IMG/VR virus record: IMGVR_UViG_3300046694_000619
Strand: one strand, 5' to 3'
Origin: a virus
Taxonomy: Duplodnaviria; Caudoviricetes
Length of the DNA: 64,000 nt
The position numbers were made by a program, and so were the translations under genes. This document shows, in pieces, positions 24,228-47,985 of the stretch. The notes under the pieces were generated by a model. That model searched no databases. It had not been told where the DNA came from and saw only the letters and a program-made list of their open reading frames with translations. The stretch's first letter is position 1. Each line of letters starts with the position of its first letter.

Positions 24228-24260
24228 CTATACTTAGATGTAAAATGCGATTAACGATTA
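24228..24260 (+). promoter_or_regulatory. -10 element plus candidate NrtR operator (prs-like gene)
   Basis: ctatacttagatgtaaaatgcgattaacgatta; contains the reverse complement of TAATCGTTAATCGCA. Confidence 0.6.
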
Positions 24261-24286
24261 ACAATCAACCAACAAAAACCATCACC

Positions 24287-25165
24287 ATGAACCACATTGC
24301 ACTGCACTCGTTCACCGCCGAAGGCGACATGACCAGCTACCCGGACATCCAGTTCATGTCGTTCCCGGGTGGCGAGCGCCACGCCCGTCTGCCGGTTGAC
24401 GACATCCTGCTCGCAGGCCCGGTGTCCTTCTGGAGCATCGAAGCGCGCGTATACACGCCGGCTGACATCATGGACCTGATGCTCGTCACGGACGCACTGC
24501 GCCGGGTGATTCCCGCAGGCAGCATACTGAAGCTCGTGATGCCCTACGTGCCGTACGCCCGCCAGGACCGTGTGGCCGTGGACGGCGAGCCGCTCTCGAT
24601 TGCGGTCTTCTGCAACCTCATCAATGCCCTGGCCTTCGACCAGGTCGAAATCTGGGACCCGCACAGCGACGTGACGCCCGCGCTCATCAAGAATGTGCGC
24701 ATCCGTCCGACGCGCGACCTGATGTTTGCTGCGTTCGGCATGAAGGGCGGGGCAAGCCTGCTGCGCGACTGCGCGTTCGTCGCCCCCGACGCTGGCGCCC
24801 GCAAGCGTGTCTCGACGCTCGCCAAGATGTTCAACACCGACGTTGTGTTCGCCGACAAGAAGCGCGACCCGGTAACGGGCAAGCTCTCGGGCGCGCAGGT
24901 ACAGGGCGATGTGCCCGCGAAGCCGCTGCTCGTGGTCGATGACATCTGTGACGGTGGCGGCACCTTCATTGAACTGGCCCGCGTGCTGCGCGAAAAGACG
25001 GACCAGCCGCTGTACCTCTATGTCACGCACGGCCTGTTCACGAAAGGCCTGGAGCCGCTCAAGGCCGCCTACGCTGGCGTGTTCTCGGCGAACTGCCGTG
25101 ATGCAGAAATCGCGAGCCAGCTCGGGATTTTCGAATCGGCTGAACTCGAAGGCGTGAGTTCCTGA
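24287..25165 (+). CDS. ribose-phosphate pyrophosphokinase family protein (Prs-like, candidate ADPR-PP synthetase)
   Basis: FPGGE, PYVPYARQDR, DPHS, APDAGA, VVDDICDGGGTF, YVTHGLF; start revised to MNHIAL. Confidence 0.92.
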   Translation: MNHIALHSFTAEGDMTSYPDIQFMSFPGGERHARLPVDDILLAGPVSFWSIEARVYTPADIMDLMLVTDALRRVIPAGSILKLVMPYVPYARQDRVAVDGEPLSIAVFCNLINALAFDQVEIWDPHSDVTPALIKNVRIRPTRDLMFAAFGMKGGASLLRDCAFVAPDAGARKRVSTLAKMFNTDVVFADKKRDPVTGKLSGAQVQGDVPAKPLLVVDDICDGGGTFIELARVLREKTDQPLYLYVTHGLFTKGLEPLKAAYAGVFSANCRDAEIASQLGIFESAELEGVSS

Positions 25166-25236
25166 CCAAAAGTCTTTGACAAAATCGCATAGTATGAAAT
25201 ACGATTTTCGACTTCACAAGTCACCCAATCATTAGC

Positions 25237-26163
25237 ATGCCCGAATCGGTGTTGTCCGGCCCCAGCTACGTTTACGCACTCTGTGACCCGCGCAAGCCAC
25301 TTGATGACGCGAGAGGGTTGCCTTACGAGCCGTTCTACATTGGGAAAGGTTCTGAGCGGCGAGTGTTTGCTCACTTTCGGAACGGAGTCTACCAGAACAC
25401 ATACAACCCTCATAAGACGAGGAAGTTGAAGCGAATCCGAGCAGAGTGTGGTCGAGATGCCTTGATAGTGTTTATTCGTGACGGCCTGACCGACGCTGCA
25501 GCATATGAACTGGAGGCTGTCCTCGTCGGCCAATGGGGCCGTCTGAACGATGGTACTGGCGTATTAACAAACGTGACAGCGGGCGGCACTGTTTTGAGCG
25601 AAAAGGCGTACGCGCCCGAAGTTATTCGAAAAGTTGCAGCGAGCCGGAAGGGAATACCGCTGACTGAGCAGCATAAGGAAAGCATCCGACGAAGGGCTAT
25701 CGGTCGTCGGCCTTCTGATGAGACGAAAGAGAAGATTCGCATGGCGCGCCTGACGCGCGCGGTACCGGTCTCCGACGAGACGCGGGAGAAATTGCGAGTG
25801 GTGCATTCGGGCAAGCCTAAGCCTGTGGGCTTCGGGCAACGAGTGAGTGAAGCAAAGCAAGGCAAGCCCAGGCCCGACAACGTAGGCAGGCTGAGTAAGC
25901 CGGTTTCGATGTATGGTGTCGATGGTTTGCTCCTTGCGACATATCCGAGTGCTCGCATTGCGTGGGATGTTACTGGCGTCGACTACAAGGCTATCAGTGC
26001 TTGTTGTACCGGAGCTCAAAAAACCTGCTGGAAGGCCGACAAGTTGGTCACCTTCAGATTCGGGGCGGCGGACGAAATTGAACAATTGAAATTGGCCAGC
26101 CGGGGTCGCCATGTTTGCCGGGCTCCAAGAATTGTCTCAAAGAAGAGGCTGGAGCCACTTTAG
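25237..26163 (+). CDS. free-standing GIY-YIG homing-endonuclease-like protein with NUMOD3-like repeats
   Basis: YVYALCDPR...FYIGKG..R; SDETKEKIR and SDETREKLR repeats; NUMOD1-like C-terminus; AT-richer codons. Confidence 0.8.
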   Translation: MPESVLSGPSYVYALCDPRKPLDDARGLPYEPFYIGKGSERRVFAHFRNGVYQNTYNPHKTRKLKRIRAECGRDALIVFIRDGLTDAAAYELEAVLVGQWGRLNDGTGVLTNVTAGGTVLSEKAYAPEVIRKVAASRKGIPLTEQHKESIRRRAIGRRPSDETKEKIRMARLTRAVPVSDETREKLRVVHSGKPKPVGFGQRVSEAKQGKPRPDNVGRLSKPVSMYGVDGLLLATYPSARIAWDVTGVDYKAISACCTGAQKTCWKADKLVTFRFGAADEIEQLKLASRGRHVCRAPRIVSKKRLEPL

Positions 26164-26277
26164 AGATTGAGCCCTAGCCGCCAAGGCTAGCTGTCCCGCA
26201 TAACGCACGGCCGCAACCTTCGAATTGCGACGCAGAAGTCAAATGCACAAAACTGTTTGACATAGAAAGCTTTTGTG

Positions 26278-26304
26278 CTATACTTAATCGTAAGTCGCAA
26301 CTAA
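26278..26304 (+). promoter_or_regulatory. sigma70-like promoter -10 plus candidate NrtR operator (nadV-like gene)
   Basis: TTGACA upstream, TGTGCTATACT, then taatcgtaagtcgcaactaa. Confidence 0.7.
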
Positions 26305-26342
26305 CACCTAATACCGCGTAAAACTCAAGAAGGATTTTAACC

Positions 26343-28064
26343 ATGAATGCACCGCACGCACCCGCCGCAATCCCCGCCGCCCTCAAGAACGGCACCATCC
26401 CCATGAATCTCGCGGATTTTTATAAAACCGGGCACCCTGGCATGTACCCGACGGAAACGAAGACGCTGGTGGCAACGTTCACGCCGCGCGGCGACAAGTA
26501 CGCGCCGGTGCGCAACTCGCCGTTCTACGACAAAAAGGTGGTGTGGCACGGCCTGAAGGGCTTCATCAAGGAGTTCCTCATCGACAAGTTCAACGCCGAC
26601 TTCTTCACGATGTCGAAGGAGCAGGCGGTCCGCAAGTTCAAGCGCCGCGTGGACTCGGCCCTGGGCGCGGGCAAGGTCGCGATGACGCAAATCGGAAAGC
26701 TGCACGACCTGGGCTATCTGCCGCTGGAAATCCGTTCGCTGCCCGAGGGCAGTCGTGTGTATATCAAAGTTCCTCCGGTGGTCTTTATCAATACAAATGA
26801 TGCCTTTGCTTGGGTCTCGACCTACTTCGAAACCCTTTTCAGCACGGAAATGTGGAAGCCTTCGACGGTCGCCACCATCGCATTCGAATTCCGCAAAATT
26901 CTCACGTATTTCGCCAAGCTGACGGGCTCGCCGCTGGACTTCGTCAGCTGGCAGGGCCACGACTTCTCGATGCGCGGCATGAGCGGCGTACACGACGCAG
27001 CACGCAGCGGCAGCGGCCACCTGCTTTCGTTCTGGGGCACGGATACCATTCCGGCCATCGACTACATCGAAGACTACTACGGCGCCGACTCAGACGCGGA
27101 GCTCATCGGCGGCTCGGTGCCGGCGACCGAACACAGCGTCATGACGCTGCGCATCCTGCTCGTCACGCAACGCCTGCAGCGCGACCCGGCGAATGCGGGT
27201 ATGGACGGAAAGGCACTGCGCAAGATGGCCGAATTTGAGGTCGTCCGTGAACTCATCGCCGACCTGGTCCCCACGGGCATCATCAGCATCGTAGCGGACA
27301 GCTTCGACTACTGGAACGTCATCACGGACATCCTGCCGCGCCTGAAGGACGTTATCAAGGCACGCAAGCCGGACGAGCTGGGCAATGCCAAGGTCGTCGC
27401 GCGTCCGGATAGTGGCGACCCGGTCAAGATTCTGACGGGCTACCTCAACAAGGAACTGGTCTGCGATGCTGCGGGTACGCCGGTGTTCAGCGAAGGCCGC
27501 TACACGGCGCTGGACGGCACGCGTATCACCGAAGCAGAGCGCAAGGGTTCGGTGGCATGCCTGTGGGATTCGTTCGGCGGCACCATCACGAGCACCGGCC
27601 ACAAGCTGCTCGACCCGCACATCGGCCTCATCTACGGCGACTCGATTACGCTGGACCGCGCAATCGCCATCCTGTCGCGCCTGGCTGCCAATGGTTTCGC
27701 CTCGGGCAACGTCGTGTTCGGCATCGGCTCATTTACGTACCAGATGCTGTCGCGGGACTCGTTCGCCTGGGCAATGAAGGCGCAATACGCAGAAGTCGGC
27801 GACGAAGTTGTCGAAATCTACAAGGACCCGGCAACGGACGACGGCACCAAGAAGTCGGCGGTCGGTCTGCTGCGTGTCGAGAAGGAAGGTGATGACTTCG
27901 TGCTCTACGACCGTCAGACGCGCGAACAGTTCGACCAGGGCGAACTGAAGCCGGTCTTCCGCAACAGCCAGCTGCTCGTCGATGAAAAGTGGGCTGTCAT
28001 CCGCGAACGTCTGCTGTCCTCGTGGGTCTGCCCGGAACCGGGTACCGTCCAGTTCGCAGTCTGA
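26343..28064 (+). CDS. nadV: nicotinamide phosphoribosyltransferase family protein (NadV/NAMPT-like, candidate Namat)
   Basis: DFYKTGH, HDFSMRG, GTDT, VPATEHSV, SIVADSFD, RPDSGDP, IYGDSIT, FGIGS, KDPATD. Confidence 0.93.
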   Translation: MNAPHAPAAIPAALKNGTIPMNLADFYKTGHPGMYPTETKTLVATFTPRGDKYAPVRNSPFYDKKVVWHGLKGFIKEFLIDKFNADFFTMSKEQAVRKFKRRVDSALGAGKVAMTQIGKLHDLGYLPLEIRSLPEGSRVYIKVPPVVFINTNDAFAWVSTYFETLFSTEMWKPSTVATIAFEFRKILTYFAKLTGSPLDFVSWQGHDFSMRGMSGVHDAARSGSGHLLSFWGTDTIPAIDYIEDYYGADSDAELIGGSVPATEHSVMTLRILLVTQRLQRDPANAGMDGKALRKMAEFEVVRELIADLVPTGIISIVADSFDYWNVITDILPRLKDVIKARKPDELGNAKVVARPDSGDPVKILTGYLNKELVCDAAGTPVFSEGRYTALDGTRITEAERKGSVACLWDSFGGTITSTGHKLLDPHIGLIYGDSITLDRAIAILSRLAANGFASGNVVFGIGSFTYQMLSRDSFAWAMKAQYAEVGDEVVEIYKDPATDDGTKKSAVGLLRVEKEGDDFVLYDRQTREQFDQGELKPVFRNSQLLVDEKWAVIRERLLSSWVCPEPGTVQFAV

Positions 28065-28070
28065 GCGGCG

Positions 28071-28097
28071 AGCCCCCGCCCAGCGGGGGTTTTCTTT
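28071..28097 (+). terminator. intrinsic terminator
   Basis: cccccgc-cca-gcggggg-ttttcttt. Confidence 0.75.
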
Positions 28098-28127
28098 GCG
28101 CAATAACTCACGGCACGAGCCATGTCG

Positions 28128-28152
28128 CAATCGTTAATCGCAATTTACGACA
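28128..28152 (+). promoter_or_regulatory. two overlapping candidate NrtR operators (autoregulation)
   Basis: caatcgttaatcgcaatttacgaca upstream of nrtR. Confidence 0.6.
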
Positions 28153-28192
28153 AAGTATGATATACTGTGTAAACAGTATTCGAGAGGTCTCC

Positions 28193-28867
28193 ATGCAATA
28201 CGAACGCCCAGATTTGTTTGTCGACATCGCCTTGCTGACGATGATTGACGGTCGCCTGAAGGTCGCGTTGTATCCGCGCGAGAAGGCGCCGGACGCGGGT
28301 ATGTGGTGTCTGGTGGGCGGGCAAATCCACACGAACGAAGACGCGGACATCCGCGCGGCCGCGCTGCGCACACTGCGCGCCAAGCTTGATTTCGAGCCGC
28401 GATACATCGAGCAGGTGTCCACGGAAGGCAATGCGCTGCGTGACCCGCGCCGCTGGTCTGCCACCGTCGTGCACCTGGCGGTGAATTCGCCAGACGTGCT
28501 GTGGGACCTGGTTGACCGCCGCGGCATGCAGCTCTTTGACCTCGAGGACGACGGGGCTCACCTGCCCGAGAACATGGCGCTGGACCACCGCAAGCTCCTC
28601 ATGATGGCGGTCGAGCGGCTGCGCAACAAGGCCGCGTATTCGACGATTGTGGCGCACTTCCTGCCCGAAGAATTCTCGCTGCCGGATTTGTTGTCCGTTT
28701 ACGAGTCGGTGCGGCAGAAGCCGTGTAACGCGGCGAATTTCCGGACGAAAATCATGAAGGAAGACGTGCTCGAAGAATCGCCGACCACGTTGTTCAGCGG
28801 AGGACGGCCGGCTACGGGCTACCGGCTCAAGGAAAACATCGCCTATTTCAACCGCGAACTGTACTGA
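28193..28867 (+). CDS. nrtR: NrtR-family regulator (degenerate Nudix + winged HTH)
   Basis: Nudix box lacking Glu residues (AALRTLRAK), RDPR, DH, FSLPDL..VYE, NFR, GRPA; adjacent to NAD genes. Confidence 0.88.
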   Translation: MQYERPDLFVDIALLTMIDGRLKVALYPREKAPDAGMWCLVGGQIHTNEDADIRAAALRTLRAKLDFEPRYIEQVSTEGNALRDPRRWSATVVHLAVNSPDVLWDLVDRRGMQLFDLEDDGAHLPENMALDHRKLLMMAVERLRNKAAYSTIVAHFLPEEFSLPDLLSVYESVRQKPCNAANFRTKIMKEDVLEESPTTLFSGGRPATGYRLKENIAYFNRELY

Positions 28868-28884
28868 CCACCCGGGTTGCTACC

Positions 28885-29109
28885 ATGAACCAGGACCAGG
28901 CGCAGCGCGACAGGCCCCTCCCGCCGAGCTATTGGGCAATCCTGGCGACCATTCGCCAGACGCCGCGATACCGGTTTGTGGCCAGTGAGTACCGGCTCGC
29001 AGAGCGAATGACGAAGGCGGGCATGCTGGAGCGCAAGGACGACCGGCGCTACGCAGTCACCCAGTACGGACAACGCTGCTATAGCGCCAACAAGGTGCTG
29101 GCGGCCTGA
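28885..29109 (+). CDS. small hypothetical protein (wHTH-like)
   Basis: 74-aa ORF in operon. Confidence 0.5.
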   Translation: MNQDQAQRDRPLPPSYWAILATIRQTPRYRFVASEYRLAERMTKAGMLERKDDRRYAVTQYGQRCYSANKVLAA

Positions 29110-29145
29110 AGAGCGGTCAACGACCGCGGATACATCGAAAGGACA

Positions 29146-30180
29146 ATGATGAAAAAAGAAACACTCGATACCGCTATCCGGGTCGGCCAGATGCTCAAGC
29201 TGATGGCGCCCCTGGCCGCGGCCAGCAAGGCGTTCAGCAAGCGCCTGTCGAAGCTGCGCTCGGGGCTGGATGAACAGCTCGTGCTGTGCCTGCTCGCCGG
29301 CGAGTCGGCGCAGGGCATCCTCGCGCCAGGCGTCATCGCCGAGCTCGACAAGGCGCTTCGCGACTCGATGGTGGAACGGCTCAACGTCAAGGGACTGCTC
29401 GATAACAGCGGGCTCTCGCATCACGTAGCGTTCAACGCCGCGCGAAAGGACCGGGTTTCCGACGTCTACCAGGTGCTCGCCCCCGCGGAAGCGGTGTCCT
29501 ACGAAACGACTCAGCACCTGAAGGTGGACCAGGCCGAGCGTTCGAAAATCATTCGTGATTTCACGAGTGCGGTTCACAACTCCAACTGGCTCAGCACACT
29601 CATGCACGTCGGTATGACCGCCGGCGTCGCTACGACGCAGAGCGCAAGTCTGGCGCGTAAGCACAGCAGCGAACAGGGGCGTGACCTCCTGATGACGAAG
29701 CTGCTCCGGCTGTGCCCGACATACGTCGAAGCCGTCGCTCCGGCTCGCAAGCGCTCGACCAAGGCGGCCACGGCGGCCACGCGCTCGAGCCGCCCGCCGG
29801 CCGTCGCGGCTGCGGGGCTGTACGTGACGCAGGTCGTGATGTCTGCAGAGGCCCTGCTCAAGCAGCCCGACATCGCAGCGCTCGCCGATACGTCGTTCCT
29901 GAGCTCCGAGAATCAGAGTCTTGCGACGCTGCTCGAAAAAGCGTCAAAGCCGGTCGTGGTGGGTGAGGGCGAAACACCCGATACGGTGGCGCAGCGCATC
30001 GTTGACGAGCTGCTGGTGGGCCTCGTCGCGCGCAACAAGGCCATCGCCGCTGAAAAGCAGGCGGTGCGCCAGCGGGCACAGGACGCCGCGAAGGCGACCG
30101 CGCTTGACGCGCTAAAGCAGCTCAATCCGAAGGTGCTCAAGCTGCTCAAGGACAATCCGGACCTGCTGAAGAACGTTTAA
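29146..30180 (+). CDS. hypothetical helical protein
   Basis: 344-aa ORF with AAAGGA RBS. Confidence 0.7.
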   Translation: MMKKETLDTAIRVGQMLKLMAPLAAASKAFSKRLSKLRSGLDEQLVLCLLAGESAQGILAPGVIAELDKALRDSMVERLNVKGLLDNSGLSHHVAFNAARKDRVSDVYQVLAPAEAVSYETTQHLKVDQAERSKIIRDFTSAVHNSNWLSTLMHVGMTAGVATTQSASLARKHSSEQGRDLLMTKLLRLCPTYVEAVAPARKRSTKAATAATRSSRPPAVAAAGLYVTQVVMSAEALLKQPDIAALADTSFLSSENQSLATLLEKASKPVVVGEGETPDTVAQRIVDELLVGLVARNKAIAAEKQAVRQRAQDAAKATALDALKQLNPKVLKLLKDNPDLLKNV

Positions 30181-30211
30181 GCCAGGTAGGCCGGCAAGAA
30201 AAACGGGGTAT

Positions 30212-30655
30212 GTGATGACAACTACTATTCAAGTGAGTGCCGCGCAGCAGCGCATTGTCGACCGCTTCATTGAAGCGCAGGGTAGCAAGCCGTTTCGCCG
30301 GCAGGATGTCGCCGACGCGCTCTATCCGCACATTAGACCGCGCCTCATGGGTAATGCGCGGGCACTCGCTGACAAGGTGATGCAGCAGCTGCAGCGCGAG
30401 CGACGCCTGGTCAAGGCAGGTCACGTGCACTGGAGTCTGGTTGTGCCGACCTCGCGCACGCTCAAGGGCGGCCGGGTGGTTCCCGAGCACAAGGAAGCGC
30501 AGCAGCTGACGCTTTCGACGCACTGCCCGCAAAAGTGGGTGGCTGTCGACCTCGAAACGGGTGACGTGTGGGCGGGAAGTGACGAAGGCTGGAAGCGCGC
30601 AGCTGGCACTGTAGCCGGCGAAGTGACCCAGATACTCTCGAAAGCAGCGACATGA
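30212..30655 (+). CDS. hypothetical protein
   Basis: 147-aa ORF, coupled to the next gene. Confidence 0.6.
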   Translation: MMTTTIQVSAAQQRIVDRFIEAQGSKPFRRQDVADALYPHIRPRLMGNARALADKVMQQLQRERRLVKAGHVHWSLVVPTSRTLKGGRVVPEHKEAQQLTLSTHCPQKWVAVDLETGDVWAGSDEGWKRAAGTVAGEVTQILSKAAT

Positions 30656-30984
30656 CACAGGATTCCAGGAAATTTCCAGCCGTACGCCGCTTTGTCGAGA
30701 CGTACGCCCATACGAAGGGCCTCGATTACGAGGCCTACTATCGGGAGCTCCTGGAGCGGACGCGCGCGCACCTCGAACAGGAACTGACCCGGCTCAAGCA
30801 AGGTGAGCTGTTTCGCAAGGAGACCCAGTTCCTCGTCGCCGAGAAAACGGTCCCTCCTGAGGTCGCATTGAGCGCCTATCGCGTTGTCAGCGAATTGCGG
30901 GACGAGGGGTATGCCGCCGACGTTCTTGCAGACTCGTCCTACGTAACGGGGCAACGCCTCTGGCTATCCATCCGGCTCTTCTGA
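30652..30984 (+). CDS. hypothetical protein
   Basis: ATGA overlap. Confidence 0.6.
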   Translation: MTQDSRKFPAVRRFVETYAHTKGLDYEAYYRELLERTRAHLEQELTRLKQGELFRKETQFLVAEKTVPPEVALSAYRVVSELRDEGYAADVLADSSYVTGQRLWLSIRLF

Positions 30985-31003
30985 GTCACTCGTTGAGGTC
31001 TGG

Positions 31004-31435
31004 TTGATGCAGCACATCCGTTTTCTTCCCCGCGTGGTGGCCGCCGCCTACCGGCCGGCGCCCGGTTCGGTGCTCATCTCCATTCATGACGTCAGCGAAC
31101 CGCCGTTGACCCCGCGAAATGGCTGGGACGCGACGCTTGTGCAGCGTTTCCATGACACGGACGGCGAGCAGATGGGGCTGGAGGTGTTCAGCGAAGCGCA
31201 GGCGCGCGAACTTCTGGCGTTCGTCGCGCGCCACGCAGACTGCACCGAGCTCGTTGTGCACTGTTCGCTTGGCCAGAGCCGTTCCGCCGCGGTGGCGCTC
31301 TACCTGTCCGAAAAGTATGGCGTGCCTTGCTTCAAGGAACAGGTCCGCGTGACCTGGGAGAACTGGCGCATCTACAACCGGTTAGTCTATCGGCGACTGC
31401 ACAACGCAGACTTCGGCGGCTCGCCAGGCGCCTGA
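31004..31435 (+). CDS. protein-tyrosine/dual-specificity phosphatase family protein
   Basis: VHCSLGQSRS (CX5R), FHD acid loop. Confidence 0.85.
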   Translation: MMQHIRFLPRVVAAAYRPAPGSVLISIHDVSEPPLTPRNGWDATLVQRFHDTDGEQMGLEVFSEAQARELLAFVARHADCTELVVHCSLGQSRSAAVALYLSEKYGVPCFKEQVRVTWENWRIYNRLVYRRLHNADFGGSPGA

Positions 31436-31459
31436 ACGGCTCCAGCGCGCGGCCGTTCA

Positions 31460-34118: not shown

Positions 34119-34187
34119 CCGAGACGCCTAGGCGCAAAGAGGTCGCCTGGCTACAATCCCGGAGGTCCAATCCTCCGGAGTTGCGTC

Positions 34188-39909: not shown

Positions 39910-39996
39910 CGCTGTTCTCCTGGCCCCGACTTGTTCGGGGCTTTTCTTTTTGTCGCGGCTATACCCAACATCGAATGTTTCAACCAGAACCGCATC

Positions 39997-40476
39997 GTGA
40001 AAATCCTACCCATATTCTTGATTGCTGCAGCATTTAATTGCCACGTCGCATTCGGCGCCGTTTCCAACACGACGAAAACTCATTGCACCAAAGATGAGAC
40101 GACGCTGTTCAGTTGTCGGATTGGCCAGAAGATAGTTAGCGTTTGTGCGGTGGGCAAACAACTGCGCCCTCAATACCGTTTTGGAAAGCTTGGGCATCCG
40201 CTCGAGCTACAGTATCCGGTGGACATTGCTAGTTCGGAACGCATTTCTATCGAGGAGCAGACTGATTCATTCCCTCGAGCGCATTATTCCGAGTGGTCGA
40301 TTGAATTCGCAAACGGTGGCTTCAGCTACACAGTCCAGGCTTTAGAATCAAGAGCGGCTGCTGATTTAGGTTCTTCTTATATTGAGATTTCCAGCAGGCC
40401 AGGCCAACTGGAGTGTGCGAGAGGTAGTGAGATGGTCAATGAGGCTGCATTGCATCAACTCGCGAAGCCTTTTTGA
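39997..40476 (+). CDS. secreted Cys-containing protein
   Basis: Signal peptide, C...LFSC..K.VSVC...YRFG pattern; AT-richer. Confidence 0.6.
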   Translation: MKILPIFLIAAAFNCHVAFGAVSNTTKTHCTKDETTLFSCRIGQKIVSVCAVGKQLRPQYRFGKLGHPLELQYPVDIASSERISIEEQTDSFPRAHYSEWSIEFANGGFSYTVQALESRAAADLGSSYIEISSRPGQLECARGSEMVNEAALHQLAKPF

Positions 40477-40501
40477 CTAATCGACGCGACCTCATCGCCG
40501 G

Positions 40502-40882
40502 TCACGCGGTCACGATTTCGTGACCTTGGCAGAGCGCTTCCTTGCCGTCCTCATACACGTACACGTACCACTCCGGCCAGTCGGGCGCGGTGACAACCTT
40601 GAGCCCCGGGCCAAGGTCTTCGCCGGCTTCCGCGCGCGCAATGAGGCTAGGCAGCGTGCGCATCTTTGCGCTGAACAGCGTCAGAAAGTGGAGCACGCCG
40701 TCCCGCTCGACCGCCCAGTCAAAGGAGTCGAGCAGCGTGCGTCCAGGCACGGCCATTCCGTCGAACTCGGAAGCGGGCAGGCCTTCTGCATCAAAAAGCT
40801 CAGGATTTGATTCCCAAAGCGCCTCGAGCACCGGGCGGTGCAGACGAAACGCATAGCTCGACGCGTTTATCAGAACTTTCAT
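40502..40882 (-). CDS. hypothetical protein
   Basis: Start revised to MKVLIN with AAGGAAG RBS. Confidence 0.6.
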   Translation of the reverse strand: MKVLINASSYAFRLHRPVLEALWESNPELFDAEGLPASEFDGMAVPGRTLLDSFDWAVERDGVLHFLTLFSAKMRTLPSLIARAEAGEDLGPGLKVVTAPDWPEWYVYVYEDGKEALCQGHEIVTA

Positions 40883-40899
40883 TGAACTTCCTTTCTTGT

Positions 40900-42150
40900 T
40901 CAGGCCGCGACGGCAACAGGCCTCACCGACGATTTGCGACAAGGCACAATCGTGTCGCGTGTTGGTCCCCACGAGCAAAACGCAACGGGCAACACCCGGT
41001 GGCTGGCCATGAAGACCAGTTCGTCCGGCGAGACTACGTGCGTTTCGGCATCCAGTCGCACGCGCGCCGCCGCGCCAACCTGGTCCAGACATGTCACAGC
41101 CGTCTGTGCGGTGATGTCGATGCGCGCGCCGAACGCTTCGGCTAGGTCAGACCCGATGGCAACTGCAAGCTGGTCCAGGTCCAGGTCGGCGAAGCGCAGG
41201 GACCCTTGGTACTCGTTCGGTTGATTCGTGAGGTCGACAACGCCTTCATAGGGCCGACCAGGCAACTCGTTTGCCAGCGGCCCGGCACCATGCCGCGTTA
41301 GGTACGCGCGGGTCACGTAGGTGACATCCAAGGCCTCGATGCCGGCTTCGCTTGCTACGTCGAGAACGTTGCGAAGCCCCGTGTTCGACCGGGTCACATA
41401 GGGGAATGCACCCTGATGCTGGTCGAGCAGCAGCCCCTGCGCGCCTTCGAACACGACATTGTCCGAGAGCAGGATAGGCGCCGCGGCACCCGACAACAAC
41501 GTGACATCACCCAGGAATTCCTGCGCGGCCTCGATAAAGGCGTCCACCAGCACGTCCGTTGTGCACAGCTTATGATGCTTGCCAAAATCCGGCAGCCCCA
41601 GTTCCTTGATGCGGACGGGCAGGTGGAAATCGCGAATCTCGATGAGTTTTGCGCGCAACGCGTCAACGTCTTGCAGGTCACCAGCCGTCAGCGCAAACGT
41701 GCCGGCTTCCATGCGCCCGATGGTCTCGCCAAAACCCATGCCGCAGCTGCCGTGTCGCTTCGCACCGCGAAAATCCTCGACGAGCTGGTTCACCAGCATG
41801 TCGAAGAAGGTGGTCACTGGCGCGCGCTCGTCCACGTAGAGCGTCGTAAGCTTGCCGAGGAGAGGCAGGAGTTTCGCGCGCTCCTTGAGATAAAGCATGG
41901 GATTGACCGCAAAGTGCCGCGACAGGTACGTCTTCGCGCCCGCGAACGTGCCGGCGCCGAAATGGCTGAAAGCATGTCGCGTGCCGTCCGGCGTGGTGAC
42001 GGTGTGACTCGCCTGGCAGCCACCGTTGAAACGCACGACGAGGCTGTTATCGCTCTGTGACGCGAAGTAATCGGTCATGAGACCCTTTCCTTCATCCCCG
42101 TAGTTCGCGCCGATGACCACTTTTGCCGAGCGCTTGCGAAGCTGTGTCAT
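40900..42150 (-). CDS. adenylosuccinate-synthetase-like protein (divergent PurA family)
   Basis: GANYGDEGKG, RFNGGCQASHT, VFEGAQGLLLD, PYVTRSN, RAYLTRHGAGP, TCLD. Confidence 0.9.
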   Translation of the reverse strand: MTQLRKRSAKVVIGANYGDEGKGLMTDYFASQSDNSLVVRFNGGCQASHTVTTPDGTRHAFSHFGAGTFAGAKTYLSRHFAVNPMLYLKERAKLLPLLGKLTTLYVDERAPVTTFFDMLVNQLVEDFRGAKRHGSCGMGFGETIGRMEAGTFALTAGDLQDVDALRAKLIEIRDFHLPVRIKELGLPDFGKHHKLCTTDVLVDAFIEAAQEFLGDVTLLSGAAAPILLSDNVVFEGAQGLLLDQHQGAFPYVTRSNTGLRNVLDVASEAGIEALDVTYVTRAYLTRHGAGPLANELPGRPYEGVVDLTNQPNEYQGSLRFADLDLDQLAVAIGSDLAEAFGARIDITAQTAVTCLDQVGAAARVRLDAETHVVSPDELVFMASHRVLPVAFCSWGPTRDTIVPCRKSSVRPVAVAA

Positions 42151-42163
42151 GCTGGGTCTCCAG

Positions 42164-42454
42164 TTACAGAATTTCGCAGCCGTATTTCTGGCGGAACTGG
42201 ATAGCCAGCTCCTGAAATTCGGGCATATTGCCCATATTGGTTTTCACTTCAGCGAGTAACCCGGGCCGACCGTACGGAAGGTCGGCGTGCAACTCGAAGC
42301 AGAATCCTTCTGCCGGTGTTGGGTATTCGCTGTAAAGCTCGGCTGAAATGCCCTTGTCCAGCGCACCTCGCACCTGGCGAATTATGTTGGCCGCCCACGG
42401 CTTCCACTCTTCGGCGTCGCGTGGCCCAGCTCCCACCTTGTCATTCGTGTCCAT
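42164..42454 (-). CDS. hypothetical protein
   Basis: Start revised to MDTNDK. Confidence 0.55.
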   Translation of the reverse strand: MDTNDKVGAGPRDAEEWKPWAANIIRQVRGALDKGISAELYSEYPTPAEGFCFELHADLPYGRPGLLAEVKTNMGNMPEFQELAIQFRQKYGCEIL

Positions 42455-42483
42455 CACTCGCTCCACTTCGAATTTTGGTGCGC

Positions 42484-42954
42484 TTAATCTGCGTAAGCGA
42501 TGATTCCGACTTCCCAAAATGCCTCGACGCCGAAATCCTTCTTCAACATGTCGACGAATTCACCGTATTCGCGCTGGGCCTTTTCGAGCATCGCCGTGCC
42601 GTCAAGGGAAGAAAAGAGCACCGGCTTGAACCCGTCTTCCGTGTCCTGCTCGAGCGTGAGGCCGTGCTCGTTGTGGTTCGGCAGCCAGATGTCGCCCTTC
42701 GGATGATTCTTTCCATATTCCGGGCAGTGCATGAAGTCCTCCCACGGGCCGGTGAGCTTGTGGATGGGAAACGGCTTCACCACTTCCGTGGGCACGTCCC
42801 GCTCAAGCACGGTACCGCCGCAGTTTCCGCAAAACTTCGCGGGCTTGCTGACCGCCGGCGCGTTGCAGTTGTTCGAGCAGCTGCGCTCAGACTTGGTCCC
42901 CTTCACGGGTGAAGGGGGAATGACCAGGTATGGGCCGATGAAAAACGACGTCAT
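42484..42954 (-). CDS. Zn-ribbon hypothetical protein
   Basis: CSNNC and FCGNCG. Confidence 0.65.
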   Translation of the reverse strand: MTSFFIGPYLVIPPSPVKGTKSERSCSNNCNAPAVSKPAKFCGNCGGTVLERDVPTEVVKPFPIHKLTGPWEDFMHCPEYGKNHPKGDIWLPNHNEHGLTLEQDTEDGFKPVLFSSLDGTAMLEKAQREYGEFVDMLKKDFGVEAFWEVGIIAYAD

Positions 42955-42968
42955 AAAAATCCTGTTGA

Positions 42969-45242
42969 TTAAGCGAGGTAGTCAGCGATGAGCACTTCTG
43001 CGTCGTAGGCCGTGACCACTTTCTGGTCAGCCTTCACCGGCACGATGGCGGTCGGCAGCTTGCTTGTGAAAACGATGTCCGCTTCCAGCGCGGTGGCCAC
43101 CCGCTCGCCACGCGCGTTGACGTGGTCAGCGAGCAGGGCGCCTAGCGTCGGTCGAACCGGATTGACGATGCCGCGCGCCATCTGCGTCGTCAGGATGGTC
43201 GCCGTCTCCACAGCATTGAAGCCGCTGCAGCGTGCCGGCAGCACCAGGTCCGCCCATACGAACTGACGTCGCGCGATGTCCACATAGCCAACCAGGATGC
43301 GCTCGCCTGCCGCCGTCAGGTCGACCTTCTGGCGCACGGTGCGTGCGTCATAGATGGCGCCGCTCTGTTCGTCGACGCGCGACATCCAGCCCAGATACGC
43401 TTCGGGCATATCGCCGAAGTTCTGCTTGGTGTACGAAAATGCGACCAGCGCGATGTACGCGGCGTCAACAGGGAGTTTGCGGAAGTCGATGTCGATGAAC
43501 TCGCACGCGCCCTCCGGCGCCGACGTAATGTCGCCGCTGTGCGTCATGCCTTCCGCGCGCAACTGCGTGAAGCTGCAGTGCGTCACATAGTTGAAGCTTT
43601 CGTCGAGCACCGAGCAGGACAGGTCCAGGTCGGTACGGCCGATGGAGTAGGGCTCGCCACTCTTATCGAGGCCTTGCTCATTCCACCACAGGAACGCGCG
43701 CATGATGGAATCGGGGCCCAGGTCGATACGCGAGCCGCGACCTACCGTCAGCAGCGACTTCTGCGCGGTACGCTGCGCAAACGGAACGCTGATGCCGTCC
43801 AGTGCAGGGTCGATATACACCTTGCCCATCGCCGGCAGCTTGGCGAAGCGCGCCGCCAGCACGTCGGACACCGTTTTGACGACGAATTCGTTGGCGCTCT
43901 CGGTCAGCCGCGGCGAACCGTTCTGCGGCACCCACATGCGGGCAGCGCCGCCCTTCGGCGAGAACGCGCGCACACCATCCTGGTCCACCGCCATGCGGTG
44001 ACGCAGTTGCACGAGGACCGGCGTCGAGACCTTGTCGGCCACAGTTGCGAAGGCCTTGAGCACCGCTTCCTTGTTCGCGCCCGTCGCCTTGCGTACGGTT
44101 TCATGCAGCTTGCGAGCGAACACACCCGGACGCTGCACGAGAAGGTCGATGGCAGCCAGGGTGTTGCGCGATGCAAGGCGCGATTCCACCGTACCGGCCC
44201 AGCTCACGGGCATGTCGTTCTTGCGCAGCGCCGTGAAGTGCTCGTAGGCACGCTTGAAGCGGGCTTGATACTCGCCCGGATGCAGCGCTTCCCCCAGGCG
44301 TACCCATTGCTCGCGTCGCTGGAACATCTCCGAGCGCACCGACTCAGCGCTGAGGCTGTCGAGGAGGCCCAGCAACAGGCGGCGCAGGCCACGAGAGACC
44401 TTGCCAAAGCGCGGCGGCTTGGACAGCGTCAGGTCTGCATCCTTGAGGTTGGCCGCGCCGACAGCGGCGGCCAGGCGCAGCACGTCGGTTGGTGTCTGGA
44501 AGAAGCGCGCGAACTCAGCGGCTTCGAACGTCGCCGGCGTGTGCGTCAGCAGCCAGCCGCCGACCAGCGCGCGGTGTTCTTTTTGCGGGATGGTTGCCTG
44601 TTCCTTGAGCATTTCGAGCAGGCGGCCAGGATAGACTTCGCTGAAATACGAGAGCAGCTCGAGCGTCACTTCCTTGTTGGCCACCGACATCGAGGCATTG
44701 CCGTTGATAAGGCGCAGCAACTGGTCATAGACGGCCGTGCGCGGTGCAAGCGCCAGGGTGGTCGGCTTCATGTGCTCGAGCATCTTGAGCGCCGGTCGCT
44801 TTGACGCCGTGTACCGAGGCAGCACACGCACCCCCATCCAGTCGCCACGATAGTGCGCCCAGGCGTTAGAGAGCAATTCCGCGTCGGAAGCTTCGAGCAC
44901 CTGTTCCGGAAAATCCGGGTACATCGGGGAATACACGCGATGCGCGCCCAGAGCGTGGCTCAGGATGTGTACGAGGTTGGTGTGGACGTGAACGAGGTCG
45001 ACTTCGGGCATCCACGACAGCGTCAGGATAGCGTCCTGGCCGTAGACGAAGCCGAGATACTCGAGAGTCAGCTCGCTGTGAAGAGCGCGGTCCATGCTGG
45101 GACCGGGATTGCCGAGTGCGCTTTCGCGCTGCGAAGCAGCGTCAACGGCGGGCAGTGCCAGCTTGCCGTTGCGAACGAGAGCCGCGAGAATGTTGAATTC
45201 ACGGGTGTTAACTCGAAATCCTGCGTCAGCGAGCGTGAGCAT
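42969..45242 (-). CDS. large helical protein with C-terminal TerD-like domain
   Basis: RPGVFARKL helical region; RTDLDLS...HSGDITSAPEGACEFIDID TerD-like motif; start revised to MLTLAD with GAGGA RBS. Confidence 0.75.
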   Translation of the reverse strand: MLTLADAGFRVNTREFNILAALVRNGKLALPAVDAASQRESALGNPGPSMDRALHSELTLEYLGFVYGQDAILTLSWMPEVDLVHVHTNLVHILSHALGAHRVYSPMYPDFPEQVLEASDAELLSNAWAHYRGDWMGVRVLPRYTASKRPALKMLEHMKPTTLALAPRTAVYDQLLRLINGNASMSVANKEVTLELLSYFSEVYPGRLLEMLKEQATIPQKEHRALVGGWLLTHTPATFEAAEFARFFQTPTDVLRLAAAVGAANLKDADLTLSKPPRFGKVSRGLRRLLLGLLDSLSAESVRSEMFQRREQWVRLGEALHPGEYQARFKRAYEHFTALRKNDMPVSWAGTVESRLASRNTLAAIDLLVQRPGVFARKLHETVRKATGANKEAVLKAFATVADKVSTPVLVQLRHRMAVDQDGVRAFSPKGGAARMWVPQNGSPRLTESANEFVVKTVSDVLAARFAKLPAMGKVYIDPALDGISVPFAQRTAQKSLLTVGRGSRIDLGPDSIMRAFLWWNEQGLDKSGEPYSIGRTDLDLSCSVLDESFNYVTHCSFTQLRAEGMTHSGDITSAPEGACEFIDIDFRKLPVDAAYIALVAFSYTKQNFGDMPEAYLGWMSRVDEQSGAIYDARTVRQKVDLTAAGERILVGYVDIARRQFVWADLVLPARCSGFNAVETATILTTQMARGIVNPVRPTLGALLADHVNARGERVATALEADIVFTSKLPTAIVPVKADQKVVTAYDAEVLIADYLA

Positions 45243-45254
45243 GTATGTCCTCGG

Positions 45255-45445
45255 ATAGCGTATAAATAACGAACAGGCTACCCGCAGGAAAGCAATACGG
45301 GATGCCGTCTGGCATCCCGTATCACCACTTCTGGAGCAGGAGAGCAGCGCCGCTAGTTTCCAATGTGAGTTGAGTAGAAGGAAGCCGCGCAATAGCCTGC
45401 AAAACCTGTCAGCTGCCGAATACTTTCGTTCAACAACCGACTTGA
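45255..45445 (-). ncRNA. candidate structured 5' leader RNA of the TerD-like gene
   Basis: About 200-nt untranslated leader with a 12-bp hairpin (45295-45322) and an enclosing inverted repeat CAGGCTA/TAGCCTG. Confidence 0.5.
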
Positions 45446-45451
45446 GAGCAC

Positions 45452-45480
45452 AGTATATACCGATAACGCGCTCGCGTCAA
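45452..45480 (-). promoter_or_regulatory. sigma70 promoter
   Basis: TTGACG-17 nt-TATACT on the minus strand. Confidence 0.75.
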
Positions 45481-45498
45481 CCGCGATTTTAGTATATC

Positions 45499-46404
45499 TC
45501 AGAATCGCGTCAATGCCGTTCCTGCGGCGCGTCCCGGCTGCAGCGCATTCAGTCCGCGTGCGACGACCATCGACGTGCTGCCCGACCACGACTTCACCGT
45601 GGCGTCGACACTGGTGCCTTCGATAACCTGAATGGTCGACACGATGAGCTCAGCCATCTTCGTGTGGTCCGACAGCGGCAGTGCGCGCTCGCCGAGCAGT
45701 GCCTTCCAGTTCGCCTTGACTGACGAATCGCACGAGTTGCTTTCTTCGACGAGCAGATGGAAGACGTGATAGCTGCGGCTGGCCATGGTCAGCAGCTCTT
45801 CCGAAGTCAGGTCGCGCTCGATGTCGTCACCAAACACACGCTGGACCTGCGCGCGAGTGAGCACGTTGTGCGGATTCTCGTCGCCGACCGTGAAAAGATA
45901 GCCCTTCTTCTTGCGCTTTTCGAAACAGTCGATGGACGTATGACGCGCGGCGAAGTACCACGGCAGGTGGTAGCTCTCGCCGCCGTTGCCCCCGCCATGG
46001 CCTTCCAGCCAGATTTGCGACAGCTGCGTAGCGATGCGGATGTCGGCCTCGAACTGCGTCACCTGCAGCGGCGCCTTGTCCGAGTACGCGTCACCTACAC
46101 CCATGCACGCGATATGCGGGTCGGCGACCGGCTTGCGCGCAATCAGTTCTTCGACGAGGACGCCCATACCCGTTCTCACCAGGACGTCCGCGAGTTTGCC
46201 CATTGAACCCGTTACGTCGCCAGCGACGATGATGGCAGTCGAATTCGGATTGGCCGCTGAGTCGCGCGATTCACGCATCGCGACACCGTGCGGATTGAGG
46301 TCCGGGTGCATGTGGTTTTGGCTGAACACCTGTGCGGTCGACTTCGTGCTTGTGCTCGACGAGAACGAATCCCAGTCGGTGGAACTCCAGTTGCTTGAAC
46401 CCAT
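45499..46404 (-). CDS. von Willebrand factor A (vWA) domain protein
   Basis: MIDAS DVTGSM, GGGNGGESY, FTVGDE. Confidence 0.85.
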   Translation of the reverse strand: MGSSNWSSTDWDSFSSSTSTKSTAQVFSQNHMHPDLNPHGVAMRESRDSAANPNSTAIIVAGDVTGSMGKLADVLVRTGMGVLVEELIARKPVADPHIACMGVGDAYSDKAPLQVTQFEADIRIATQLSQIWLEGHGGGNGGESYHLPWYFAARHTSIDCFEKRKKKGYLFTVGDENPHNVLTRAQVQRVFGDDIERDLTSEELLTMASRSYHVFHLLVEESNSCDSSVKANWKALLGERALPLSDHTKMAELIVSTIQVIEGTSVDATVKSWSGSTSMVVARGLNALQPGRAAGTALTRF

Positions 46405-46452
46405 GATTTACTCCTGTGCGTTGTGCGGTTAGTGCGTTGTTTTGCTGTTTGT

Positions 46453-46878
46453 TTAAGCTTCCGTCTTCCGGGATGTATCGCCAGCGAGCCGGCGCAGCGA
46501 CTGCTCGAAGTGACAGAGCCACTTGAATTTGTCGGACACCCACGAAAAGCTTTGGTTGGCGTCGCTCTGCGCCCGGTTAATCCATGACCCGTACTCAGTC
46601 GTGCCGGGTTGCGGCAACTGCAGCGGGATGTGCTGTGCGGCGCTCCAGCACCCGCGCATTGAATACGCAGAGAACGAGGCGCGCTCGTATCGCTTGCCGT
46701 ATTCGCCCGTCATGTAGGCGTCGAAGTCGGCGGCGGCCGGTTCATCCTTCGGCGCCAACGCCGTGTTCACGATGCGCGAGATGCGGTCACGCAGCTGCTG
46801 TGTGTCGCGGTACTGAACCGCCGTGTCGCGCAACTCGTTCACGAGCGCGGTGATTTCGTGGTCTTTGAGGTCTTTCAC
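46453..46878 (-). CDS. hypothetical protein
   Basis: 141 aa, GTGA overlap with the upstream gene. Confidence 0.55.
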   Translation of the reverse strand: MKDLKDHEITALVNELRDTAVQYRDTQQLRDRISRIVNTALAPKDEPAAADFDAYMTGEYGKRYERASFSAYSMRGCWSAAQHIPLQLPQPGTTEYGSWINRAQSDANQSFSWVSDKFKWLCHFEQSLRRLAGDTSRKTEA

Positions 46879-47945
46879 AGCGCAATTCCTTGTCGCGGGT
46901 CGTACAGCCTGTCATGGGACAGGTCCATCGGGACGAACTTGCGCGGGCCGAACGCCTCGATGAGAACGCGCGACTGCCAGTCCTTGTAAGTGGCCACCGC
47001 GCTCTGATGCGTGCTCAGCTGAAGCCAGTCGACCAGGGCGGCCGGAACAGACGCGTCCTTGGCCAGCCGAACACCGGTTGAGTCGCCGAGCAGCTCACGC
47101 CCGAGCGCCTGAATCATTTCCATGTCCGTGCGGGTGTCGCCGACCTTCTTCTGGAGCACGGCTGGCGGCGCGCACAGCATCATTCGTTGCGAGGCCGCCT
47201 TCATCGGAGCGCCCAGCGGCGTGGCAAACCACCAGCCACCAAAGAGGTGAGCGGTGTGCTCCTCCGGCGAAATGAAGACCGTGTCCGGGCCGATAGCGTT
47301 GTGCGAGACCTTGCCTTGAATCTCGAGGTAGCAGGCGATGTTCAGCAAGCGGCTGAGGACCCACGCGACATGCGCGGCAGGCATCTTTCCCTTGTAGAAC
47401 TCGAGCACGTCCTGAAGGAGCATCTCCTTGGCCGTTTTCTTGAGGACCAGCATGGCGCCGGTCGCCGTTTCGACCTTCTTCACCACTTCCGGGAAGTAGC
47501 GCGAGAACTCCTTGCGCATCGGGTCGTTGGCGTAGGACAGGCGCGCGATGCTGCGTTGCGCGTCGTCGAGCAGGTCCAGGTTGTCGGTGGAGATGTCGAA
47601 CGCCACTACGGTGCGGCCGACGTACATCGTTCCAACCTCGAGCGCCACCTTGCGTGAGAAGCGCAGCTCAAACTGCGTTCCGTCCGTGCCGCGGATGGCG
47701 AGCAGTCCCGGTGTCTCCCACGTGCCTTCGGCGGCCTTGCGCTTGGCCGCTTTGTTCAGCTTCTTGAGCCGGTCGAACACGTCCCATCCGCGTGGACCGG
47801 AGCCGTGGTCAGGATGCCACCTCATGAAAAGCTTGCGAGCTTCCTTCTCCGCCGCCGCCGCGCTCGAAAACAGACGCTCGGGCGCATCTTCAGGGATGGC
47901 CAGGATTTCGTCAGCAGTGAGGGCGGTTTGGTCGGCTTCGGTCAT
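46875..47945 (-). CDS. J-domain (HPD) fused to a degenerate protein-kinase-like domain
   Basis: KLFMRWHPDHG; HVAWVLSRLL..ACYL, HNAIGPDTVFI (catalytic-loop-like), LFGGW in place of DFG. Confidence 0.75.
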   Translation of the reverse strand: MTEADQTALTADEILAIPEDAPERLFSSAAAAEKEARKLFMRWHPDHGSGPRGWDVFDRLKKLNKAAKRKAAEGTWETPGLLAIRGTDGTQFELRFSRKVALEVGTMYVGRTVVAFDISTDNLDLLDDAQRSIARLSYANDPMRKEFSRYFPEVVKKVETATGAMLVLKKTAKEMLLQDVLEFYKGKMPAAHVAWVLSRLLNIACYLEIQGKVSHNAIGPDTVFISPEEHTAHLFGGWWFATPLGAPMKAASQRMMLCAPPAVLQKKVGDTRTDMEMIQALGRELLGDSTGVRLAKDASVPAALVDWLQLSTHQSAVATYKDWQSRVLIEAFGPRKFVPMDLSHDRLYDPRQGIAL

Positions 47946-47958
47946 GTCCAGTTAGTTC

Positions 47959-47985
47959 TTAGTTGCGATTTACGAATAAGTATAG
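47959..47985 (-). promoter_or_regulatory. -10 element plus candidate NrtR operator (J-kinase/vWA operon)
   Basis: Minus strand ctatacttattcgtaaatcgcaactaa, 25/27 identical to 26278-26304. Confidence 0.7.

Follow-up and report, generated by a model that had tools for sequence, protein, structure and literature searches.

We found that a 16-base imperfect palindrome, GTWAAT-YGCR-ATTWAC, sits on the promoters of the NAD-rebuilding genes (prs-like and nadV-like), of nrtR, which encodes a sensor of the ADP-ribose-responsive NrtR family, and of a distant operon of unknown function encoding kinase-like, vWA-like and PurA-like proteins. The same motif and sensor gene accompany that operon in unrelated bacteria, so one sensor probably switches all of them. 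We put the probability of this reading at about 0.8. It rests on comparative genomics, as NrtR binding and induction by ADP-ribose were not assayed here.

The starting point was a match of 25 of 27 nucleotides between 26278-26304 (+) and the minus strand of 47959-47985, within the 64,000-nucleotide stretch analysed (hereafter the window). This match is real. A 26-nt degenerate pattern with up to 3 mismatches hits only these two places, and 100 shuffles gave none. The match has two layers. Its first 9 bases (cTATACTta) are the usual -10 box of this element: TATACT occurs 27 times on the two strands of the window, mostly before genes. The informative part is the 16-bp palindrome, which starts exactly 5 nt after that -10 at the nadV-like gene, the kinase operon and the prs-like gene, and which lies over the -35 position at nrtR. 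Only 3 of the 27 TATACT boxes carry the motif at +5; it is therefore not a generic part of the promoter class. We rejected a recent duplication as the source of the match, because the upstream spacers differ and relatives keep the sites with independent substitutions.

The original prediction described the related sites as TYGY-N5-RCRA and counted two upstream of nrtR. These are better read as one 20-bp palindrome (GT-N12-AC) whose half-sites agree at 8 of 10 positions, so that nrtR has a single upstream site. A repeat search with 6-nt exact seeds reports no inverted repeat at the four sites, since the palindromes are imperfect. Counting the symmetry directly gave a mean of 5.0 of 8 self-complementary half positions compared to 2.1 for random sequence. 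The kinase sites are the least symmetric, with 4 of 8, and their 3′ part (TAAGAA) may be constrained as a ribosome-binding site instead. A second palindrome at 28163-28180, ATACTGT-gtaa-ACAGTAT over the nrtR -10, was considered as the real operator but was rejected because it is not kept as a palindrome in L070 and L072 (numbers with L denote loci of relatives). The features of the two loci are listed in the following table.

Features of the NAD locus and of the distant operon, with the observations that support them
Position	Strand	Feature	Observations
24240..24255	+	Operator before the prs/Adps-like gene (GTAAAATGCGATTAAC)	Starts 5 nt after TATACT 24229-24234; also overlaps an alternative -10, TAAAAT 24241-24246, paired with TTGACC 24217-24222; conserved in L001, L004, L070
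24287..25165	+	Prs-like gene, candidate Adps of NARP1	Start taken at the conserved ATGAACCAC used in relatives (the ORF list begins at 24245, inside the operator); Pfam and PHROG 619; gene calls in relatives; PDB hits are Prs only, E 7e-19
26257..26284	+	Promoter of the nadV/Namat-like gene	TTGACA, 16 nt, TATACT (11 of 12 consensus positions)
26290..26305	+	Operator before the nadV/Namat-like gene (GTAAGTCGCAACTAAC)	5 nt after the -10; conserved in L001, L004, L070, L074
26343..28064	+	NadV-family gene, probably Namat (nicotinamide ADP-ribose transferase of NARP1)	Best PDB hits are phage Namat 9W5W/9W5X, E 6e-126, against about 1e-41 for Nampt; entries identified in PMC12774641
28072..28093	+	Terminator-like hairpin with a T run after the Namat-like gene, separating it from the nrtR promoter	Read from the sequence; fold -21 kcal/mol; not flagged by the scan used for the promoters
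28131..28150	+	Operator of nrtR, 20-bp palindrome with 16-bp core 28133-28148 (GTTAATCGCAATTTAC)	Over the -35 position, 12 nt upstream of TATACT 28161-28166; conserved in L001, L004, L070, L072, L074
28193..28867	+	nrtR: Nudix-like domain plus NrtR winged-helix domain	Pfam PF21906, E 8e-13; PDB 3GZ5/3GZ6 Shewanella NrtR, E 4e-29 over the full length
47958..47973	-	Operator of the kinase operon (GTAAATCGCAACTAAG on the minus strand)	5 nt after the -10 TATACT 47979-47984; -35-like CTTGCA at 48004-48009
40502..47945	-	Target operon: J-domain/kinase-like 46875-47945, small ORF 46453-46878, vWA-like 45499-46404, TerD-like 807 aa 42969-45392, small ORFs 42164-42954, PurA-like 40900-42150, last small ORF ending at 40502	Same gene order in relatives; core kinase/vWA/PurA-like set in Massilia and Competibacter
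18347..22216	+	Four weaker operator-like sites (18347, 19700, 21050, 22201) at or near the promoters of the GT2 synthase, two unknown genes and UDP-glucose dehydrogenase	12-17 bits; stronger at the same places in L001 (21.2, 17.1, 22.1 bits)

Scanning with a weight matrix had been put forward in advance as a way to test the link. In the window there are four strong sites (22.5-26.3 bits; next best 14.4), all on promoters. We also built a matrix from the prs and nrtR sites only, which scores the nadV site at 18.8 bits and the kinase site at 17.2 bits. The best chance hit per 64 kb has a median of 12.8 and a 95th percentile of 17.4 bits. The kinase site alone is therefore borderline, and it is its fixed position and its conservation that make it significant. 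The scan covered the window and not the rest of the ~720-kb element. The weaker sites before the glycosyltransferase/UDP-glucose dehydrogenase cluster are a probable extension of the regulon.

Next, we examined relatives, whose NrtR is 58-92% identical; the records behind L001, L066 and L069 were not searched further. They keep the sites at the prs, nadV and nrtR promoters, and the site at the kinase promoter is kept in 7 of 8 relatives examined while the promoter spacers have randomised. An alignment of the 8 relatives at the kinase promoter shows an invariant -35, an unconserved spacer and a near-invariant block from the -10 through the operator. The exception is L066, in which the kinase site is degraded to 8-10 bits although nrtR and its own site are intact on the same contig. 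The contig of L082 has an identical kinase operator although its kinase is only 65-67% identical. The element of L072/L073 has nrtR without adjacent prs/nadV, and the best hit in each of its two ~21-kb loci, which overlap and together span ~36 kb, is the nrtR promoter and the kinase promoter, respectively. A metagenome-wide search for the 22-nt -10-plus-operator pattern gave 9 hits, of which five are non-random, and all five lie before either a prs-like gene or the kinase gene.

The conservation of the whole block from the -10 to about +25, and not only of the palindrome, could suggest that the shared sequence is only a promoter module of the element, made of its private -10 and a favoured initial transcribed sequence, with no dedicated repressor and no regulatory link between the loci. 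We consider this unlikely. Besides the rarity of the motif among the TATACT boxes, the motif lies upstream of the -10 at nrtR and in the glycosyltransferase cluster, and it recurs in Massilia and Competibacter divergent loci with other promoter contexts. An action at the RNA level, as a shared 5′ leader for translation control or stability, is less likely still. At three promoters the motif would form the first ~16 nt of the transcript, and the kinase site abuts a possible Shine-Dalgarno sequence (TAAGAA). Nevertheless, the nrtR site and the sites before the first two glycosyltransferase-cluster genes (18347, 19700) lie upstream of the -10 and behind a terminator and so are not in those transcripts, and the motif is used in both orientations. 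The sequencing runs listed are all rhizosphere metagenome DNA with no RNA among them, so transcript starts and co-expression were not read. On this evidence the four sites are best explained as operators laid over core promoter elements.

We then asked whether the association holds in distant bacteria. A search of genome contigs with the single kinase sequence found nothing, whereas a search with an alignment succeeded. In 36 of 61 distant loci holding a kinase homologue an NrtR homologue is adjacent, 29 of them divergent with a gap of 100-350 nt. These 29 loci (Massilia, Competibacteraceae, Methylobacteriaceae) were scanned with a matrix trained only on NAD-locus sites, and in 28 of 29 the best hit of the whole locus fell in the short nrtR-kinase intergenic region. 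In five Massilia genomes of 5.4-6.1 Mb the exact motif occurs once, at that region. Extra 1-mismatch hits in Massilia genomes lie in or at the ends of reading frames and are no more frequent than in the control. Five loci keep the motif without an adjacent nrtR, and each of these genomes has a 74-75% NrtR orthologue elsewhere, while five motif-less genomes have no close orthologue. This comparison is confounded by phylogeny, because all five positives are Competibacteraceae. Presence of the motif tracks presence of an orthologous NrtR in the genome.

The motif could also be the operator of a different DNA-binding protein of the element or host, with NrtR merely one of its targets. The departure of the motif from the usual GT-N7-AC core of NrtR sites and the weak kinase site of the L066 lineage, which keeps nrtR, leave room for this reading, and no binding, expression or effector data exist for this protein. 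We nonetheless regard it as improbable. The motif travels with NrtR orthologues across alpha-, beta- and gammaproteobacterial loci that otherwise share only the cassette, and no other regulator is conserved next to these sites in the loci read. The protein itself is a full-length NrtR, with a Nudix-like domain fused to the NrtR winged-helix domain, although the Nudix match is below the Pfam cut-off (19.6 against 21.1 bits).

The kinase-like, ~300-aa vWA-like and PurA-like genes lie in one operon with an NrtR-type operator in its promoter. The Massilia vWA-like protein is 56% identical, and PurA-like genes follow in Massilia and Competibacter. In the window nrtR is not adjacent to this operon but lies about 19 kb away, beside the NARP1-like genes, and the same is true in relatives L069/L070 and L066/L074. 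The operon of the window also carries the 807-aa TerD-like gene and small ORFs, and its operator is shared by at least four promoters. PADLOC gave no hit for any operon protein, and phrog_2971 found nothing in the 14 control genomes. A near-identity search of 24-30 kb against phage records and a tblastn search of the kinase against phages gave no match. NrtR gave only hits at 36% identity or less against phage records, and scans of viral contigs with NrtR or with the 22-nt pattern found nothing. In the literature searched, we found no paper that describes this cassette.

Taken together, comparative genomics supports the original prediction of one NrtR regulon that includes the operon at 40.5-47.9 kb. 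In this model, an NrtR dimer would bind the 16/20-bp palindrome, covering the transcription start region at the prs/Adps-like, nadV/Namat-like and kinase-operon promoters and the -35 at nrtR, and in each case RNA polymerase would be blocked. When NAD+ is cleaved and ADP-ribose accumulates, ADP-ribose would bind the Nudix-like domain and release NrtR. This would switch on together the NAD+-rebuilding pair (probably NARP1, whose substrate is ADP-ribose itself), nrtR, and the J-kinase-like/vWA/TerD-like/PurA-like operon 20 kb away, with the glycosyltransferase/UDP-glucose dehydrogenase cluster probably included. What our data establish is the motif, its fixed promoter positions, its conservation and its co-occurrence with NrtR orthologues across distant bacteria, whereas binding by NrtR, repression as the sign of regulation, and ADP-ribose as the effector are inferred from the family (PMC2330246). 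More tentatively, the operon may be an undescribed ADP-ribose-triggered pathway of the NAD+ conflict between mobile elements and bacterial immunity, co-induced with NARP1 by a single NrtR switch and old enough to exist as a self-contained nrtR-plus-operon cassette in several proteobacterial classes.

NrtR control of prs-nadV has been known since 2008, and that gene pair has since been recognised as the phage NAD+-rebuilding pathway NARP1. The locus described here puts an uncharacterised but widespread three-gene cassette under the same, presumably ADP-ribose-responsive, operator, which gives a concrete, testable handle on its function. It also gives a defined probable operator for a previously undescribed NrtR clade, and it shows how a regulon can stay wired after its regulator gene has moved 20 kb from its target.

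Phage NAD+ reconstitution pathway 1, composed of Adps and Namat (bioRxiv 10.1101/2024.02.11.579819; PMC12774641), likewise has an adjacent Prs-like and Nampt-like gene pair. The Nampt-like protein of the window matches the solved Namat far better than it matches Nampt, which places it in the Namat clade. For the Prs-like gene, adjacency to Namat is observed and 97% of Adps-clade genes have a Namat neighbour, but its PDB hits are Prs and no Adps sequence was available for comparison, which leaves its assignment to the Adps clade undecided. The prs-like/nadV-like pair is probably NARP1. In the passages of the preprint searched for NrtR, Nudix and Prs, NARP1 is a two-gene phage operon with no NrtR named. 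Here each gene has its own promoter and NrtR-type operator, and a homing endonuclease gene lies between them.

The closest regulatory parallel is found in the NrtR regulons of NAD metabolism, especially nrtR-prs-nadV of Shewanella oneidensis, Acinetobacter and Chromobacterium (Rodionov et al. 2008, PMC2330246). There, too, a Nudix-plus-winged-helix repressor gene lies next to a prs-nadV pair, with palindromic sites on the promoters including its own, and NrtR control relieved by ADP-ribose is established for Shewanella. Uncharacterised genes divergent from nrtR with a predicted NrtR site between them are likewise known, as in the Massilia and Competibacter loci found here; the identity of nrtX/nrtY was not compared with the kinase-like and vWA genes, nor was the Shewanella operator compared directly with ours. 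The operator described here has even symmetry (GT-N12-AC) and lacks the 21-bp GT-N7-AC core, which is typical of 12 of 18 NrtR groups and not universal, as the same study reports six groups with dissimilar motifs. Finally, the regulon of the window reaches a distant operon of unknown function and probably a polysaccharide-synthesis cluster, and it is carried on a giant extrachromosomal-type element from a rhizosphere metagenome.

The similarity between the two distant 27-mers is real: the sequences at 26278-26304 and on the minus strand of 47959-47985 read as the original prediction gave them and agree at 25 of 27 positions. A degenerate 26-mer allowing up to three mismatches finds only these two places, and none in 100 shuffles. 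The match has two layers. The first nine bases (cTATACTta) are the -10 box used throughout this element, TATACT occurring 27 times on the two strands of the window, mostly just before genes. The informative layer is a 16-bp imperfect palindrome, GTWAAT-YGCR-ATTWAC, which starts exactly 5 nt after the -10 at three promoters, those of the prs-like gene, the nadV-like gene and the kinase operon. A fourth copy lies 12 nt upstream of the nrtR -10, where a -35 would be, and extends to a 20-bp palindrome whose half-sites agree at 8 of 10 positions. The two pseudo-palindromes that had been proposed upstream of nrtR are the two halves of this single site. Only 3 of the 27 TATACT boxes carry the motif at +5, so it is not part of the generic promoter.

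A scan with a position weight matrix had been proposed in advance as a test of the shared operator. In the 64-kb window, the four sites score 22.5-26.3 bits and the next best hit scores 14.4. We also built a matrix from prs and nrtR sites only, with no nadV or kinase site in it. This matrix scores the nadV site at 18.8 and the kinase site at 17.2 bits, while the best chance hit per 64 kb has a median of 12.8 and a 95th percentile of 17.4. The kinase site alone is therefore borderline, and it is its fixed position and its conservation that carry the argument.

Hits ranked 5-8 in the window lie at or near the four consecutive promoters of a GT2 chitin/hyaluronan-synthase-like gene, two unknown genes and a UDP-glucose dehydrogenase gene. 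This cluster, which suggests polysaccharide synthesis, is immediately upstream of the NAD locus and is conserved in relatives. Each promoter region carries a weaker operator-like site preceded by TTAGT, as in the Massilia sites, and the same places score 17-22 bits in the relative L001. We regard these sites as probable weaker members of the regulon. No operator-like site was found before either of two further genes on the element, which encode an ADP-ribosylglycohydrolase-like protein and an NAD-dependent DNA ligase.

Coordinates of the operator sites and neighbouring features in the window and in two relatives
Feature	Location	Strand	Remarks
Palindrome before the prs-like gene	24240-24255
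Palindrome before the nadV-like gene	26290-26305
Palindrome before nrtR	28133-28148
Palindrome before the kinase operon	47958-47973	-
Weaker operator-like sites	18347, 19700, 21050, 22201		Ranks 5-8
GT2 synthase-like/unknown/UDP-glucose dehydrogenase cluster	18421-23673	+
GIY-YIG homing-endonuclease-like gene	25237-26163	+	Promoter-like site TTGACA 25176, 18 nt, TACGAT
Palindrome ATACTGT-gtaa-ACAGTAT	28163-28180		Over the nrtR -10 and start region
T5orf172/MUG113-type gene	48055-48606	+	Start probably at 48106; TATACT at 48078-48083
ADP-ribosylglycohydrolase-like gene	62302-63213	+
NAD-dependent DNA ligase gene	9760-11796	+
NYN-nuclease/cold-shock-domain fusion protein	16356-17504	+	Upstream of the cluster
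726-aa PAPS-reductase-like protein	13328-15508	+	Upstream of the cluster
Insert with two tyrosine-recombinase-type genes	L071:4425-9656		~5.5 kb, between the nadV-like gene and nrtR
nrtR without adjacent prs/nadV genes	L072:1-10684		Preceded by an integrase, an NAD-dependent ligase and unknown genes

The DNA occurs in rhizosphere metagenomes, and its NrtR protein is on record on a 720-kb contig. Relatives lie on contigs of about 580-640 kb, including Burkholderia ubonensis, B. multivorans and Paraburkholderia assemblies. Phage-type families occur nearby in relatives, but we do not assign the element to either giant phages or plasmids. We compared relatives with NrtR 58-92% identical and kinase 65-91% identical. 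The palindrome is kept at the prs, nadV and nrtR promoters in every one, at the same distance from the -10, while flanking bases differ. At the kinase promoter, an alignment of eight elements shows an invariant CTTGC, an unconserved 18-19-nt spacer and then a near-invariant block from the -10 through the operator. The contig of the relative L082 has an operator identical to that of the window although its kinase is only 65-67% identical. One lineage (L066/L074, two loci of a single 579-kb contig) is an exception: its nrtR and its nrtR site are intact, but the kinase site has decayed to 8-10 bits. Another element (L072/L073) has nrtR without prs/nadV beside it, while the kinase operon and its operator are kept. 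The best hit in each of its two ~21-kb loci, which overlap and together span ~36 kb, is the nrtR promoter and the kinase promoter, respectively. A metagenome-wide search for the 22-nt -10-plus-operator pattern returned nine hits, of which four are AT-rich chance matches and all five others lie before either a prs-like gene or the kinase gene.

The GIY-YIG homing-endonuclease-like gene, with its own promoter-like site, sits between the prs-like and nadV-like genes of the window, where the relatives L001, L004 and L070 have only a ~100-nt spacer; L074 shows the same short distance before the nadV-like gene. In one B. ubonensis-type relative (L071), the insert between the nadV-like gene and nrtR leaves the nrtR operator and promoter intact. 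The near-perfect palindrome over the nrtR -10 and start region is kept in L004 and near-perfect in L074, but it is weakened in L001 and becomes a direct repeat in L070 and L072. The T5orf172/MUG113-type gene is transcribed divergently from the kinase operon, and its own TATACT promoter has no operator.

Next, we investigated whether the motif accompanies nrtR and the kinase gene outside these elements. A scan of species genomes with a kinase alignment gave 61 distant loci, 23-45% identical, from Competibacteraceae, Massilia, Methylobacteriaceae and others. Using tblastn, we found an NrtR homologue, mostly 35-40% identical, directly next to the kinase gene in 36 of them; in 29 it is divergent, with a gap of 100-350 nt. 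A matrix trained only on the NAD-locus sites of the Burkholderia-type elements was then run over each whole locus of 4-21 kb. In 28 of the 29 divergent loci the top hit fell in the nrtR-kinase intergenic region. Scores there were mostly 13-25 bits (9.7 in the locus L051), against at most 16 elsewhere in the locus. Examples are GTTAGTTGCATTTTAC in Massilia and GTTATTTGCAAATTAC in Competibacter. The Competibacteraceae divergent loci (L005-L027) carry a second 16-bp palindrome of the same frame (such as GTTATTAATAAATAAC) close to the nrtR start, so they have two sites per intergenic region. In five Massilia genomes of 5.4-6.1 Mb the exact motif occurs once, at the nrtR-kinase intergenic region.

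Among loci with ample upstream sequence and no adjacent nrtR, five keep the motif before the kinase gene, and each of those genomes holds a 74-75% NrtR orthologue elsewhere. Twelve lack the motif, and of five such genomes tested none has a close orthologue (the best is 37%). This comparison is confounded by phylogeny, but it points the same way. The motif therefore travels with this NrtR clade, and the kinase operon is a regular partner of that clade. The original interpretation, in which a single NrtR regulon includes the distant kinase operon, is thus supported by comparative genomics.

The regulator is a full-length NrtR, with the PF21906 winged helix and a match to Shewanella NrtR 3GZ5/3GZ6 at E 4e-29. 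The nadV-like protein matches the solved phage Namat structures 9W5W/9W5X at E 6e-126, against about 1e-41 for Nampt. Adjacency of a Prs-like and a Namat gene is the signature of NARP1, which rebuilds NAD+ from ADP-ribose and nicotinamide. The pair is therefore probably Adps/Namat, although the Adps assignment is not proven here. The distant operon encodes a kinase-like protein (PHROG "kinase", with a DnaJ domain detected in homologues), a ~300-aa protein with a MIDAS-like DVTGSMG motif that is 56% identical to its Massilia counterpart, an 807-aa protein with a weak TerD match and a PurA-family enzyme. PADLOC has no model for any of these proteins. The chromosomal cassettes hold only the kinase-like, vWA-like and PurA-like genes.

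All four sites sit on core promoter elements, namely the start region in three cases and the -35 in nrtR. At the prs-like promoter the site also overlaps an alternative -10, TAAAAT, paired with a conserved TTGAC. This arrangement fits repression by occlusion. NrtR proteins of Shewanella and Synechocystis bind such sites and are released by ADP-ribose (PMC2330246). While the motif, its promoter positions, its conservation and its association with NrtR orthologues come directly from the sequence comparisons, binding, the sign of regulation and the effector are all inferred. Furthermore, the kinase sites are the least symmetric, and their 3′ TAAGAA may be a ribosome-binding site. In the likely logic, NAD+ cleavage would yield ADP-ribose, ADP-ribose would free NrtR, and the ADP-ribose-consuming NARP1 pair and the unknown operon would then be expressed together.

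The concept of NrtR acting with prs-nadV is not new. The spacing of the present motif (GT-N12-AC) differs from the usual GT-N7-AC core, although the 2008 study reports six NrtR groups with other motifs (PMC2330246). In the library searched, we found no paper that links NrtR to a kinase-like/vWA/PurA-like operon; the nrtX-nrtY genes of 2008 may be the same thing, but they were not compared here. Relative to these known systems, what is new is a defined operator for this NrtR clade, its sharing between NARP1-like genes and the cassette across 20 kb on a giant element, and the possible polysaccharide branch of the regulon.
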